From Pseudomonadota bacterium (lineage in GTDB: Bacteria > Pseudomonadota > Alphaproteobacteria > SMXQ01), in assembly GCA_022566265.1 (NCBI GenBank), contig JADFJG010000003.1:7572-71571 (forward strand): DNA of 64,000 bases, read 5' to 3'. Below the pieces are notes generated by a model, which was not told the DNA's origin, made no database searches, and saw nothing but the letters and a program-made list of their open reading frames with translations. This document shows, one piece after another, positions 59,379 through 64,000 of the stretch (position 1 is the stretch's first letter; each line of letters begins with the position of its first letter). A program made the position numbers and the translations under genes.

Positions 59379-59522
59379 GGCGAGGCCGGCGATGACCGCC
59401 GGGTCGACCGCCCCTCGGGTTCCCGATTGCCGCTCGGACAATTTTGCGCTTGGACAAGCCGGGCCTTGCATAGATATAATTTGGCCAACCGAACCGACCG
59501 CCCCCGCGGGGAGCCTGCCTTG

Positions 59523-60338
59523 ATGAAGCATTGGACGCCAGAGGATATCCCCTGGGACGACTTCGATCCCCAGCGGGTGAACGGCGATATCCTCAAGATC
59601 GTCAAGGCGGCCAGCCTGGTCGAGGGGAACGGGCGGGATTACGCGCGTTATCTTTGCAATGTCTTCGACGATGACGCCGAATTCCAGGAAGCGGCGCGCG
59701 CCTGGGCCGAGGAGGAGGTCCAGCATGGCGACGTTCTGGGGCGCTGGGCCGAGCTCGCGGATGCCGAATTCGATTTCAGCGCTTGTCTCAAGCGCTTCAC
59801 CGACGGCTACAAGCTGCCCCTGGACGCCACGAGTTCGGTCCGTGGCTCCCGCGCCGGCGAATTGGTCGCCAGGTGTATCGTCGAGGTCGGAACCAGCGCC
59901 CATTATTCGGCGCTGGCGGGCGCCACCGACGAGCCGGTGCTCAAGGAGATCTGCAAGCGCATCGCGGCGGATGAGTTGCGTCACTACAAGCTGTTCTACA
60001 GCCACCTCAAGCGCTATCTCGACCGCGAGGGATTGGGCGTGCTCGGCAGGCTCAGGGTGGCGCTCGGGCGCATCACCGAATCGGAAGACGACGAGCTGGC
60101 CTACGCCTATTACGCCGCCAATGGCGGCACCGAGCCCTATGACCGCAAGCGCAACATCCGCGCCTACGTTCACAGGGCGTACCCTTACTACCGTCCCGGT
60201 ATCGTCCAGCGCGCCGTCGCCATGACGTGCAAGGCCACCGGGCTGAAGCCCAACGGCTGGCTCAGCCGCATCGTCGCCGGCCTGGCGTGGCGTTTCATGG
60301 CCTATCGCCAGCGCCGCCTCGCCCAGACGCCGGGTTGA
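59523..60338 (+). CDS. Ferritin-like diiron-carboxylate family protein (two ExxH motifs)
   Basis: EEEVQHG and ADELRHY are spaced about 90 aa apart, as expected for a four-helix diiron site. Start taken at the MKHWTPEDIPWDDF ATG. The specific family could not be resolved. Confidence 0.5.
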   Translation: MKHWTPEDIPWDDFDPQRVNGDILKIVKAASLVEGNGRDYARYLCNVFDDDAEFQEAARAWAEEEVQHGDVLGRWAELADAEFDFSACLKRFTDGYKLPLDATSSVRGSRAGELVARCIVEVGTSAHYSALAGATDEPVLKEICKRIAADELRHYKLFYSHLKRYLDREGLGVLGRLRVALGRITESEDDELAYAYYAANGGTEPYDRKRNIRAYVHRAYPYYRPGIVQRAVAMTCKATGLKPNGWLSRIVAGLAWRFMAYRQRRLAQTPG

Positions 60339-60345
60339 CAATTTG

Positions 60346-60386
60346 TTGACATGCCAACAGGGACAAGGTATCTATAGAACATATAG
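60346..60386 (+). promoter_or_regulatory. Sigma70-like promoter (TTGACA, 17 nt, TATCTA) with a perfect 6-bp inverted repeat TCTATA-N5-TATAGA upstream of the methyltransferase gene
   Basis: TTGACA at 60346-60351 and TATCTA at 60369-60374. The palindrome TCTATAGAACATATAGA at 60370-60386 overlaps the -10 and +1 region. Confidence 0.35.
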
Positions 60387-60504
60387 AGAACGATCTGTTT
60401 GGCGGCTCTTTCCTGCAACCACGTTTTTGCCTTTCCTATAAATGGCCTATCAAGCGCATCAGGCAATTCAATCAGACGATACGAGTCGCCGTTCTGACGG
60501 CGCG

Positions 60505-61386
60505 ATGCCCTATCAAATTCATCTCGGGGATGCATTCGCGTGGCTGTCCTCGGCAAGGAGTTGCTCGATCCATGCGGTCGTCACCGATCCACCATATGGC
60601 CTGATCGAATATTCCGACACCCAACTGAAGAAATTGAAGTCAGGGCGGGGAGGTGTTTGGAGGATTCCACCGAAATTTGATGGTTGTACACGGATGCCGC
60701 TGCCGCGATTTACCGTACTGTCGGCGGCTGATCACGAGGCGCTTCGATCGTTCTTTGCTGAATTTGCCAGATTGTTGAAACGTGTTTTGGTTCCTGGCGC
60801 CCACGTGTTTGTCGCGACCAATCCACTCGTGTCTTTTCTGGTCTATGAGCCCTTCATATCGGCTGGATTCGAGAAACGCGGGGATATCATCCGGGTCGTC
60901 CATACCTTGCGGGGGGGCGATCGGCCTAAAAATGCCCATGAAGAGTTTTCCGAAGTTTCAGTCATGCCGAAATCCTGTTGGGAGCCGTGGGCGCTGTTTC
61001 GAAAACCGTGCGAAGGACGTGTCCAAGATAACCTTCGTAAGTGGAAGACCGGCGGTTTGCGCCGCATTTCAAGTGACGAACCCTTCAAGGATTTGATTTA
61101 CTCCTCTCCGGCGAGAGGCATCGAAAGAAAAATTGCCTCTCACCCCTCGCTAAAACCGCAACAGTTTTTACGTCAGCTCGTCCAGGCGGCGCTGCCCCTG
61201 GGCGAAGGGGTCATACTCGATCCGTTCATGGGCTCGGGCTCGACGATAGCCGCTGCCTCCGCATGTGGCTTACGCAGTATCGGGATCGAAATGAATCCTG
61301 AATATTTCGAGTTGGCCGAGCAGGCGATCCCGGAACTGGCGCACTATTCACCGGAAGAACTCCGGGCCAATGGTACGAAAGGCTGA
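60505..61386 (+). CDS. Beta-class DNA N6-adenine methyltransferase (DPPY ... FxGSGST order)
   Basis: Motif IV DPPY near the N-terminus and motif I DPFMGSGSTIAAA near the C-terminus, CcrM/HinfI-like, with HPSLKPQQFL upstream of motif I. Low-GC island. Confidence 0.75.
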   Translation: MPYQIHLGDAFAWLSSARSCSIHAVVTDPPYGLIEYSDTQLKKLKSGRGGVWRIPPKFDGCTRMPLPRFTVLSAADHEALRSFFAEFARLLKRVLVPGAHVFVATNPLVSFLVYEPFISAGFEKRGDIIRVVHTLRGGDRPKNAHEEFSEVSVMPKSCWEPWALFRKPCEGRVQDNLRKWKTGGLRRISSDEPFKDLIYSSPARGIERKIASHPSLKPQQFLRQLVQAALPLGEGVILDPFMGSGSTIAAASACGLRSIGIEMNPEYFELAEQAIPELAHYSPEELRANGTKG

Positions 61387-61984
61387 CTTCGACCCTTCGG
61401 TGCCACTGCCACCCGGTCTCGACATTGCTTCGATTAGACGGGCCATAGATTACATCGAGCGAGAACTCGCCGATCTGATCGACGTCTATTTCGAGCAAGC
61501 TAATATCTTCAGCGCGCTGGTCGGCATATACGGGACCAAGGCGCTCGACTCGCTCAGCAATTATGAAAAGCATCGTCACATCGACACGGCACAGCAGCGT
61601 TTCCCCGACCTGCGCCGGAGAGGCTCCGGAAATCGCCCCAGTCCGAAAGAGTCCCTGGAAAGCAAGGCAAGTAAACGTCCGTGGGCTATTCAATCGCACT
61701 ACGATCATGCCGGGTGGTACATCGTTTGGCGCTATATGGTTGAGCCAACGGAATCCTTGGCATCTGGGCGGCCCGTCATAATCTGTCGCGTGGATGTCAT
61801 TTTCCTCCGTAAGTCAGACTGGAAATATGAAAGGAGCAGCGCCGGTCGAAAGGGCGGTGGCCGCACTCATACCTTTGGGGTAACGAATCCGGCCAAGAAG
61901 TTACGTGGCAAGGCTGTTTACCAGCGAAAAGATGTCGCGATACGCGACGGAAAATGGGTCCCCGTGAATGGCGGGGAAGGTTGA
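61370..61984 (+). CDS. Candidate Type II restriction endonuclease (PD-ExK-like) partner of the methyltransferase
   Basis: 204-aa low-GC ORF overlapping the methyltransferase stop by 17 bp. FPDL...ESLESK provides a PD-(x)n-ExK arrangement. No other homology recognised. Confidence 0.4.
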   Translation: MVRKADFDPSVPLPPGLDIASIRRAIDYIERELADLIDVYFEQANIFSALVGIYGTKALDSLSNYEKHRHIDTAQQRFPDLRRRGSGNRPSPKESLESKASKRPWAIQSHYDHAGWYIVWRYMVEPTESLASGRPVIICRVDVIFLRKSDWKYERSSAGRKGGGRTHTFGVTNPAKKLRGKAVYQRKDVAIRDGKWVPVNGGEG

Positions 61985-62039
61985 CCCGCGACCATAGGGT
62001 GATTTTTCGGAAAGCCGGCCGGAAAGCTGGGGCGCCGGG

Positions 62040-62565: not shown

Positions 62566-64000
62566 TCAGTCGGGCTGTTTGTTGGCGAGGGCGGAGACCG
62601 GGACCAGGATCAAGCCCTTTTTCTCGAATTGCCGGAGCCACCGCCCGACCCGCTCGAAGGTGACGGGATAGGTGGTGCCGACGCCAAGGGCATGGCCGCT
62701 CGTCCGGGCGATGCGCTCGAGCTCGGCGAGCCTTTGGTCGATGGCCTCCCGCGATGCCCTGACGTCGATGAAACGGTTGTTGATCGCCCTCGCCAGGCCG
62801 ATCCTGGTCGCCATCCGGGCGGCGACGCTACGCAGCGAAGCACCCGAATCGACGAACATCAGGCCGCGTCTCTTCAACTCCGCGAGGATCGGATCGAGAT
62901 GGCGGCCCGAGGTCGTGAACCGTGAGCCCATGTCGTTGATGACACCGACATATCCGGAAGACCGGCTCAACACCCAACGCAGGCGCTTGAGATTCTCCGC
63001 CGCCGCCAGAGAGGTCAGGAGCGTATGGGGACCGGGGTCGTCGGCGGGAAAATTGTCCGGTTCCATCGGCAGGGTCAACAGCACCTCGTGGCCCGCCGCC
63101 CGGGCCAGGGGAATCCACCGGTCGAGCGTCTTGGCGTAGGGCGCGAAGGCCAGGGTCACGGCGCCGGGAAGACGCTGGATGGCGGCCTGGGTCGAAGCCT
63201 CCGAAAGCCCGAGTCCGACGATCACCAGGGCAATGCGCGGCCGTCTGTCCCTGTCATCGAAGCGGCGCGCATAGACCAGCCACGGCTTGCGCCCGTCGTC
63301 GCCGATAACGGGCAGCAGTCCTAGCCCGCTTTTCTCGGTAAGGCCGGGATCCGGCGCCGGTGAGAGCGCCGAACGCCTGGTGATGATGTTGCTCAGCGCC
63401 TTCGGCGCTCCGGGCACGGGCGAGGGCGCCTTGGGAGCAACGGCGGAGGGGCGGAGCCGGACGACCGTTTTACCGGCGGCCGTTTCACCGGCGGCGGTTT
63501 TCTCCTGGGTGGCCTTGGACGTTTCCTTTTTGGCCGGCTTGGGCGTCACCGCCGGCTCGGGCGCCACCGGCGGCTCGGGTGTCGCCGTCTCGATCTCGGC
63601 TTTCACCGGGGCCTTGGCGGCGGGCTTGGTTTTTGCGGGGACCTTGGCTTTGGCCTTGGCTTTCGCCTTTGGCTCGGGTGCGGCCGGCTTCGGGGGCGTC
63701 TTCGCCTTAGCCGGCGGCTCGGGCGTCGCCGTCTTGGCCTCGGCCTTCACCGGGGCCTTGGCGGCGGGCTTGGTTTTTGCGGGGACCTTGGCTTTGGCCT
63801 TGGCTTTCGCCTTCGGCTCGGGTGCGGCCGGCTTCGGGGGCGTCTTCGCCTTAGCCGGCGGCTCGGGCGTCACCGTCTCGACCTCGGCCTTCACCGGGGC
63901 CTTGGCTTTCTCAGGGGGCGTGGCCTTGGCGGGCGGCGTCTTGGCTTTCTCGGCGGTCCTGGTCTTCGGTTCCGGGGCGGGCGGCGGTTTCTTGGCGGCG
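62566..64000 (-). CDS. Divergent polysaccharide deacetylase (YibQ-like) family protein with Ala/Lys/Pro-rich repetitive N-terminal region; the 5' end probably runs off the window
   Basis: The C-terminal domain resembles DUF610/divergent polysaccharide deacetylases. The N-terminal region has tandem AKTPPKPAAPEPKAKAKAKAKVPAKTKPAAKAPVKAE repeats. The reading frame stays open to the window edge. Confidence 0.65.
   Translation of the reverse strand, partial: AAKKPPPAPEPKTRTAEKAKTPPAKATPPEKAKAPVKAEVETVTPEPPAKAKTPPKPAAPEPKAKAKAKAKVPAKTKPAAKAPVKAEAKTATPEPPAKAKTPPKPAAPEPKAKAKAKAKVPAKTKPAAKAPVKAEIETATPEPPVAPEPAVTPKPAKKETSKATQEKTAAGETAAGKTVVRLRPSAVAPKAPSPVPGAPKALSNIITRRSALSPAPDPGLTEKSGLGLLPVIGDDGRKPWLVYARRFDDRDRRPRIALVIVGLGLSEASTQAAIQRLPGAVTLAFAPYAKTLDRWIPLARAAGHEVLLTLPMEPDNFPADDPGPHTLLTSLAAAENLKRLRWVLSRSSGYVGVINDMGSRFTTSGRHLDPILAELKRRGLMFVDSGASLRSVAARMATRIGLARAINNRFIDVRASREAIDQRLAELERIARTSGHALGVGTTYPVTFERVGRWLRQFEKKGLILVPVSALANKQPD
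63595..63900 (-). repeat. About 130-bp in-frame tandem duplication (2+ copies) within the deacetylase-family gene
   Basis: Two nearly identical blocks are visible: GGCTTTGGCCTTGGCTTTCGCCTT...GGCGGCGGGCTTGGTTTTTGCGGGGACCTTGGC. Confidence 0.8.

Follow-up and report, generated by a model that had tools for sequence, protein, structure and literature searches.

A candidate Type II restriction-modification cassette with a predicted LexA operator at an alphaproteobacterial atp locus

We analyzed a 64,000-nucleotide (nt) stretch of an alphaproteobacterial genome (GenBank assembly GCA_022566265.1, contig JADFJG010000003.1, positions 7,572 to 71,571), referred to here as the window. Downstream of its atp operon lies a putative Type II restriction-modification (R-M) cassette on the forward strand, which consists of a promoter region and two genes only, one for a DNA methyltransferase (M) and one for a 204-amino-acid protein (R); it contains neither an integrase nor a transposase gene (Table 1). 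A preliminary description of this DNA, made from the sequence alone, had proposed a low-GC R-M island at this position. Its account of the genes holds: a DPPY-type beta-class methyltransferase gene with motif IV ahead of motif I is followed, with a 17-bp overlap, by the small open reading frame (ORF). The drop in GC content is also real but reaches about 55%, not the 50% given at the time (0.549 for the cassette and 0.52 to 0.57 in 300-nt windows, versus 0.655 for the rest of the window).

Table 1. Features of the putative R-M cassette, in window coordinates
Feature	Position	Strand	Basis
Inserted R-M cassette	60340..61985	+	Empty site in L096; 78 of 80 ferritin-like relatives without M and R; GC 0.549 versus 0.655
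Putative sigma-70-type promoter: -35 TTGACA (60346-51), 17-nt spacer, -10 TATCTA (60369-74)	60346..60374	+	Layout kept in relatives
Inverted repeat TCTATA (60371-76)-GAACA-TATAGA (60382-87)	60371..60387	.	Perfect in window; overlaps GAAC-N7-GAAC box
Predicted LexA (SOS) operator, GAAC-N7-GAAC direct repeat, GAACATATAGAGAAC	60377..60391	+	Kept in six diverged promoters
M, beta-class N6_N4 DNA methyltransferase, 314 amino acids	60442..61386	+	Pfam PF01555, PADLOC MTase_II, motif order
M/R overlap, 17 nt, predicted translational coupling	61370..61386	+	Kept across loci
R, candidate Type II restriction endonuclease, 204 amino acids, undescribed PD-(D/E)XK family	61370..61984	+	Homologues, invariant motif, AlphaFold/Foldseek

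The cassette occupies 1,646 bp between the stop codon of a ferritin-like gene and the 3' end of rppH, and a close relative (L096) has an empty site at this position. Homology between the two loci stops at 60339 and picks up again at 61985; their ferritin-like proteins are 93% identical and their RppH proteins 95% identical. In L096, a convergent rppH follows the ferritin-like gene after about 100 nt, and M and R are not found between them. A metagenome scan with the ferritin-like protein encoded upstream of the cassette (59523-60335) recovered 80 related loci, of which one (L095) carries M and R, 78 do not (L096 and 77 other relatives, in the set L096 to L174), and one is too short to tell. 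Among the cassette loci compared, the GC content of the cassette correlates with that of the host (r = 0.72), and in 78 of 83 it is lower than in the flanking DNA, with a mean difference of 4.5 points. The empty site supports horizontal acquisition of the island. A tblastn search with R against 72,556 plasmid and 50,697 phage records gave no match, and a search of 2.9 million viral contigs gave a single relative; on these results, the cassette has no marked association with plasmids or phages.

Both ends of the island carry a 7-bp direct repeat, GGTTGAC (60333-60339 and 61979-61985), each copy of which contains a stop codon, that of the ferritin-like gene at the left and that of R at the right. 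We considered this repeat as a target-site duplication and rejected it, because the right end reads GCTGAAC in a related locus (L093) and the empty site in L096 holds 21 nt that are absent from the window; the repeat is probably due to chance. The gene 5' of the island (listed as 59427-60338) encodes a ferritin-like or di-iron protein with weak Pfam matches to FA_desaturase_2 and Rubrerythrin; many alphaproteobacteria have such a gene after atpC. The TTG listed as its start codon probably lies too far 5', because the relatives are called at 271 amino acids, which places the start at 59523.

By the same kind of comparison, the cassette is not recent at this locus, because three relatives carry it at the same site with a divergence equal to that of the flanks (L093, at ~91% nucleotide identity, and L175 and L176, at ~74 to 75%). 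In four distant alphaproteobacterial metagenome-assembled genomes (MAGs; L010, L022, L025, and L049), M and R also lie between atpC, or the ferritin-like gene, and rppH, and the ferritin-like protein is 55 to 60% identical to that of the window or absent. The slot between the atp operon and rppH is occupied in these four loci as well as in L175, L176, and L093 to L095, with ferritin-like proteins that are 55 to 77% identical in the distant carriers. As judged from these alignments, the slot has long been occupied in some lineages, and in most others the cassette was lost or never gained; the pattern reflects either repeated losses or spread of the cassette by recombination through the conserved flanks. 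Found in the same slot yet absent from most relatives, the cassette is a tractable case for the gain and loss of minimal R-M islands without mobility genes.

M matches the Pfam family N6_N4_Mtase (PF01555) at 2.6e-20 and the PADLOC Type II methyltransferase model (MTase_II PDLC03215) at 7.5e-119. The two motifs looked for in a Type II R-M methyltransferase, DPPY and FxGxG, are both present, and VVTDPPYG (motif IV, residues 45 to 52) stands ahead of DPFMGSGS (motif I, residues 260 to 267), which is the order of the beta class. Homologues of M carry generic names only, such as "site-specific DNA-methyltransferase (adenine-specific)," and its relatives in the PDB match only in the S-adenosylmethionine (SAM)-binding part. 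Translation of M may start at 60442 (314 amino acids) or at M22, at 60505 (293 amino acids); NCBI calls the cluster members at 293 amino acids. The first 21 codons are poorly conserved: the leader together with these codons (60401-60504) is 62% identical to L093, versus 89 to 99% for the flanking 100-nt blocks, and the alignment contains no indels.

R had no match in Pfam, NCBIfam, PADLOC, or the PDB, whether it was searched as a single sequence or as a 76-member family profile. When all 76 family members were searched against Pfam, only the helix-turn-helix (HTH) domains of fusion proteins matched, and PADLOC matches among the members had E values of 0.003 to 0.005 in the weakest clade. The family is nonetheless large: 2,888 homologues, counted as representatives of 90%-identity clusters, are present in a set of 5.8 billion proteins, all of them unnamed or "hypothetical," and a scan of 185,579 species genomes located R in 402. 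Eighty loci from these 402 genomes were fetched (L007 to L086), every one of them from a MAG. They represent Planctomycetota, Chloroflexota (Anaerolineae and Dehalococcoidia), Acidobacteriota, Nitrospirota, Proteobacteria, Armatimonadota, and Sumerlaeota, and their R homologues are 67 to 81% identical to window R across at least seven phyla. Long-read MAGs that carry this main clade include the Dehalococcoidia chromosomes OZ244816 and OZ240225. Taken as a pair, M and R remain 59 to 81% identical over the same span, and R-M pairs are not usually conserved so tightly. When the representatives of 50%-identity clusters were searched exhaustively, the family proved to be isolated, with few divergent members, and a profile of these divergent members led to a sister clade of proteins of ~212 amino acids that are ~30% identical to R; it includes Bilophila wadsworthia WP_303069968 (RefSeq) and proteins from Clostridiales MAGs.

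R is consistently found next to M. In 85 of 86 loci, an M homologue that is 59 to 80% identical to window M lies directly 5' of R in the same orientation; the single exception is a locus cut by a contig end. The neighborhoods around the pair are unrelated between loci. Among 70 distinct loci, the overlap measures exactly 17 nt in 40; the two ORFs overlap in 59, and the remainder have gaps of 13 nt or less. The partnership extends to the sister clade, in which the gene for the R homologue converges on, and overlaps, one for a methyltransferase of the same PADLOC family as window M, to which it is 51% identical. Two further members of this clade, P0263 and P0283, have an N-terminal XRE-type HTH fused to the nuclease homologue. 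Of these two, P0263 was scanned against PADLOC, and its HTH matches R-M control (C) proteins at 2.8e-9; the P0263 gene (L091, 5001-5864; L092, 889-1752) is convergent with a methyltransferase 46% identical to window M. Because order and orientation have changed while the partner has been kept, the M-R pairing survives rearrangement. Between the clades, R is 30% identical and its partner M 46 to 51% identical, so that R diverges faster, as is usual for R-M pairs. Judged by adjacency, these genes behave as a Type II R-M system would: a separate R gene is co-inherited with M in all but the truncated locus and in two other arrangements, and the two are inserted as a unit. The island is thus very probably a self-contained Type II R-M cassette.

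On Bilophila wadsworthia contigs (L087 to L090), the sister-clade nuclease and methyltransferase genes lie beside relaxase, NikA-like, AlpA, and tyrosine-integrase genes. This element looks like an integrative mobilizable element and occurs on hundreds of gut-metagenome contigs.

The active-site motif of R reads FPDL-x12-ESLESK (F78 P79 D80 L81 ... E94 S95 L96 E97 S98 K99). The preliminary description had recognized this motif but counted 13 residues between L81 and E94, where there are 12. Across 76 sequences of the two clades, the invariant columns include Q43, N45, F47, S48, P79, D80, L81, L96, E97, K99, H110, H113, G115, and W116. In a hand-picked set of 13 divergent members, conservation is near complete (90% or more) at Y65, P79, D80, L81, E97, and K99 and complete at G115 only. 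From this conservation, D80, E97, and K99 are predicted to be the catalytic residues. The spacing, PD-X16-ExK, is close to that of EcoRV (D74...D90-x-K92).

An AlphaFold model of R built from the two-clade alignment has a predicted local distance difference test (pLDDT) score of 89.6 and a predicted template modeling (pTM) score of 0.87. It shows two long helices followed by a sheet, with D80 at the start of strand 81-83 and E97-x-K99 inside strand 95-101, and as modeled this is the canonical PD-(D/E)XK layout. Searched with Foldseek against the PDB, the model matched SfiI best (E = 2.3e-3, probability 0.97), then EcoRV and BglI, and the top eight matches all belong to these three enzymes; a search against viral structures was uninformative. 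R is accordingly predicted by the model to have a restriction-nuclease fold of the EcoRV/SfiI/BglI kind. The earlier proposal that the small ORF encodes a candidate new restriction endonuclease is supported by the empty site, the linkage to M, the invariant motif, and this predicted fold, and we consider it very likely that R is a restriction endonuclease and that its sequence family has not been described before.

Upstream of M, the promoter layout of TTGAC, a 17-nt spacer, and TAT is kept in L093, L175, L176, L010, and L049, with diverged sequence around it. In the comparison with L093, the segment 60340-60400 is well conserved and 60401-60500 is only 62% identical. The GAAC-N7-GAAC box begins 3 nt past the -10 hexamer, over the expected transcription start, and we infer that transcription of the M-R operon starts near it. 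When the promoters of the window and these five relatives are aligned, GAACA and AGAAC are invariant and the 7-nt spacer between the GAAC half-sites varies (ATATAGA, ATTCCAA, ATTCCGA, ATAAAGA, and AATCAGA). GAAC-N7-GAAC, or GTTC-N7-GTTC, is the operator of alphaproteobacterial LexA (PMC3091678; PMC9578287 Table 1, citing da Rocha et al. 2008; bioRxiv 10.1101/2025.01.26.634973); a Caulobacter example is GTTCttgttatGTTC (bioRxiv 10.1101/2025.01.26.634973).

Exact boxes are also overrepresented at the cassette. We found 10 in 85 cassette upstream regions, against ~0.65 expected; alphaproteobacterial DNA without the cassette (612 kb) gave 12 matches, a background of 0.005 per 250 nt, or ~1 per 50 kb. 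All 10 box-bearing loci, which make up eight independent lineages, are alphaproteobacterial or unclassified proteobacterial MAGs, and none of the ~70 loci of other phyla has a box. In L022 and L079, the box lies on the opposite strand and overlaps the -35/-10 spacer or the -10 hexamer of different-looking promoters, which suggests independent arrangements. Phylum-specific LexA motifs (GAAC-N4-GTTC and CTG-N10-CAG) were not enriched upstream of the non-proteobacterial copies. These sequence patterns make functional LexA control of the M-R operon a reasonably probable prediction. Elsewhere in the window, a second GAAC-N7-GAAC, GAACTGTTAACGAAC, lies at 189-203 on the minus strand near a CoA-transferase-like ORF; two such sites in the window fit a chance count.

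Our overall explanation is that of a Type II R-M cassette with a coupled M-R operon that, in alphaproteobacterial hosts, carries a LexA operator, and we place its probability at roughly 0.75. A DPPY motif favors N6-adenine. M would methylate a short target, with N6-adenine as the base that the motif suggests, and R, probably as a homodimer, would cut unmethylated copies of this target with D80, E97, K99, and Mg2+. The two genes would be transcribed together from the single promoter TTGACA-17 nt-TATCTA, and translation of R would be coupled to that of M by the 17-nt overlap, such that R would never be made without M, would be made at a lower level, and would act only once protection is in place. 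In alphaproteobacterial hosts, the operon would have acquired the host LexA operator. LexA bound at +1 would keep M-R expression low in undamaged cells, and RecA-mediated cleavage of LexA in the SOS response would release it; single-stranded DNA from phage, conjugation, or DNA breaks that activates RecA is a possible trigger. Why the operon should be SOS inducible is a matter of speculation. Induction might provide more restriction when invading single-stranded DNA or phage triggers the SOS response, or more M to cover newly synthesized repair DNA, or the benefit might simply be a low basal expression that eases establishment. The fuller interpretation, a mobile R-M cassette with a new nuclease family, one that may have a new specificity and that occurs across phyla most of which are uncultivated, wired into the host SOS regulon and serving either as an inducible restriction barrier or as an SOS-triggered self-attack or addiction device, we hold at even odds.

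Several observations weigh against this explanation. With respect to regulation, the -10 hexamer TATCTA is weak, and a strict consensus promoter scan called nothing upstream of M at its threshold. The whole window contains 2 boxes versus 1.9 expected (one per 32 kb by chance), and because this count equals chance, the case for the box rests on its position and conservation. The six box-bearing promoters that were aligned are orthologous and are not independent observations, and one alphaproteobacterial copy, L025, has no box. A search of the window and of all proteobacterial loci for lexA and recA found none with which to confirm the host motif; the only lexA match in the locus search was in L071, an unclassified-bacterium MAG. 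With respect to the enzymes, a first AlphaFold model of R, from a shallow alignment (44 sequences, 73 to 94% identity), had a pLDDT of 56, and the model became confident because the ~30%-identity clade was added to the alignment. The Foldseek TM-scores are low (0.29 to 0.41), with no match at E <= 0.001, so that the relationship of R to known restriction endonucleases is a distant one; because the structural match is weak in absolute terms, the fold assignment rests on the identity of the matches together with the motif. For M, a DPPY motif does not strictly exclude N4-cytosine specificity.

It is conceivable, though on balance unlikely, that the R-M reading is right and the box is not a LexA site. 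GAAC-N7-GAAC would then be a conserved element of the leader or the initially transcribed region, or would be bound by a different direct-repeat regulator such as a response regulator, and the cassette would be constitutive or otherwise controlled. Such an explanation would suit the alphaproteobacterial copy without a box and the fact that six of the eight box-bearing lineages share one ancestral promoter; moreover, LexA use of the motif is documented in other alphaproteobacteria and not in the window organism, and the motif turns up about once per 50 kb by chance. It does not readily explain why all copies match the LexA consensus exactly, with fixed half-sites and a free spacer, as expected of that operator. 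Nor does it explain why the boxes of L022 and L079 overlap the core promoter even though their position and strand differ, or why the box is missing from all non-proteobacterial hosts, whose LexA motifs differ. LexA control therefore remains our preferred reading of the box.

R might also be something other than a classical restriction endonuclease, namely, another methyltransferase-associated PD-(D/E)XK protein such as a repair or nicking enzyme, a methyl-directed nuclease, or an inactive DNA-binding partner. The structural likeness to restriction endonucleases is weak (TM 0.41), 67 to 81% conservation across phyla is unusually high for restriction enzymes, and site-avoidance statistics gave no clear target. 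In the host flanks of all carriers, CAGCTG was the most depleted 6-mer palindrome (observed/expected ratio of 0.29, versus 0.54 in controls), a signal that vanished when alphaproteobacterial carriers were compared with alphaproteobacterial non-carriers; in the latter comparison, GGTACC, TCGCGA, and CAATTG were borderline (P ~0.001 to 0.003 for 46 tests), and gapped palindromes showed taxon-composition effects only. We nevertheless consider such a role for R improbable. R travels with M as a two-gene unit into unrelated contexts and keeps this pairing while order and orientation change, its relatives include fusions to the HTHs of R-M control proteins, and it diverges faster than M (30% versus 46 to 51% identity), the usual behavior of R-M pairs. 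In addition, its catalytic triad is invariant, and its best fold neighbors are exclusively Type II restriction endonucleases. A restriction endonuclease thus remains the better account of R.

The preliminary description had also drawn attention to the inverted repeat TCTATA-N5-TATAGA and likened it to C-protein or methyltransferase autoregulatory operators, in which case a dimeric protein of the system itself (M, R, or a C protein) would bind it. The repeat is real and perfect and sits at -10/+1, and in L010 one arm pair differs from the window at both positions (T/A in place of A/T), so that symmetry is preserved. That the repeat serves as the operator is nevertheless very unlikely. Three perfect 6-bp inverted repeats occur in the 270 nt upstream of M, and about half of 73 related upstream regions hold at least one; such repeats arise at this density by chance, and the palindrome is not beyond chance. 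L093 (TCTCTA...TATAGA) and L010 retain it at 5/6, and L049, L175, and L176 lack it in that register. No inverted repeat was found to be shared upstream of M among 73 loci including other phyla, and a self-encoded regulator would need one in the ~70 loci of those phyla. The cassette has no C gene, M and R of the window clade have no HTH, and the bases that are invariant among the promoters are the two GAAC half-sites of the direct repeat. The palindrome is probably a by-product, at the sequence level, of the AT-rich -10 hexamer and the box spacer.

That M is a chromosomal regulatory methyltransferase, CcrM-like and orphan, with an unrelated ORF downstream is scarcely credible: M is indeed a beta-class DPPY enzyme in an alphaproteobacterium, and the NCBIfam CcrM equivalog model aligns with its C-terminal SAM-binding part only, but M reaches 45.7 bits where the model's cut-off is 830, and of the 350 model positions the alignment extends no further than position 259. 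Moreover, 78 of 80 close relatives lack the gene, it always travels with R, and its best match is the PADLOC Type II methyltransferase model. M shares the motif order IV-I and a homologous SAM-binding region with the CcrM/HinfI family but differs from CcrM in being accessory and horizontally acquired and in lacking the CcrM C-terminal domain, as had been described.

Compared with known systems, the cassette most resembles Type IIP R-M systems of the EcoRV, SfiI, BglI, and PvuII types, which likewise are two-gene modules of M and R with a small nuclease (~200 amino acids); M.PvuII is also a beta-class amino-methyltransferase. The EcoRV-like (beta-lineage) enzymes SfiI, EcoRV, and BglI are the best structural neighbors of R, at a TM-score of only ~0.4. 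R differs from solved restriction endonucleases in having no detectable sequence similarity to them, even with the family profile, and in matching no restriction endonuclease model of Pfam, NCBIfam, or PADLOC. R-M systems with C proteins (the PvuII, BamHI, Esp1396I, and AhdI types) set the timing and level of R at a promoter-proximal operator, in which the window cassette is predicted to be like them, and some members of the sister clade of R carry a fused C-protein-like HTH. Unlike these systems, the window cassette has no C gene, HTH, or conserved palindromic C-box (73 upstream regions), and its control is predicted to run through host LexA and translational coupling. The SOS genes of Caulobacter, Rhodobacter, and Sinorhizobium share with the cassette the box consensus, the AT-rich 7-nt spacer, and the overlap with the core promoter; the box of the cassette differs in that it fronts a mobile Type II R-M pair and not repair or translesion-synthesis genes.

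Expression of Type II R-M systems is normally thought to be controlled by their own parts, such as C proteins, methyltransferase autoregulation, antisense RNA, and gene overlap. A host LexA operator on an R-M cassette, if true, would be a clear case of a defense or addiction module that has adopted a host stress regulon, and LexA wiring, if confirmed, would be a new variation on R-M regulation that specialists would find mildly surprising. The sole link between the SOS response and R-M in the literature searched is a prediction for the specificity subunit of Type I systems (HsdS, COG0732) in gut metagenomes (PMC3998124). The family assignment of R, if true, would name a large unannotated family (~2,900 representatives of 90%-identity clusters and 402 species genomes) as probable restriction endonucleases, which would help annotation and the search for new enzymes. 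Many beta-class methyltransferases that look like orphans would then belong to complete R-M systems, and the family would offer a candidate for a new specificity.

Apart from the cassette, the ORF at 62566-63894 (minus strand) contains a 144-nt tandem repeat at 63567-63906, with 2.4 copies that are 95% identical and an AT skew that reaches -0.8. The repeat encodes a Pro/Ala/Lys-rich N-terminal region (PAKAKTPPKPAAPEPKAKAKAKAKVPAKTKPAAKAPVKAE...), and the C-terminal part of the product resembles a divergent polysaccharide deacetylase (PF04748 in the L094 neighbor).

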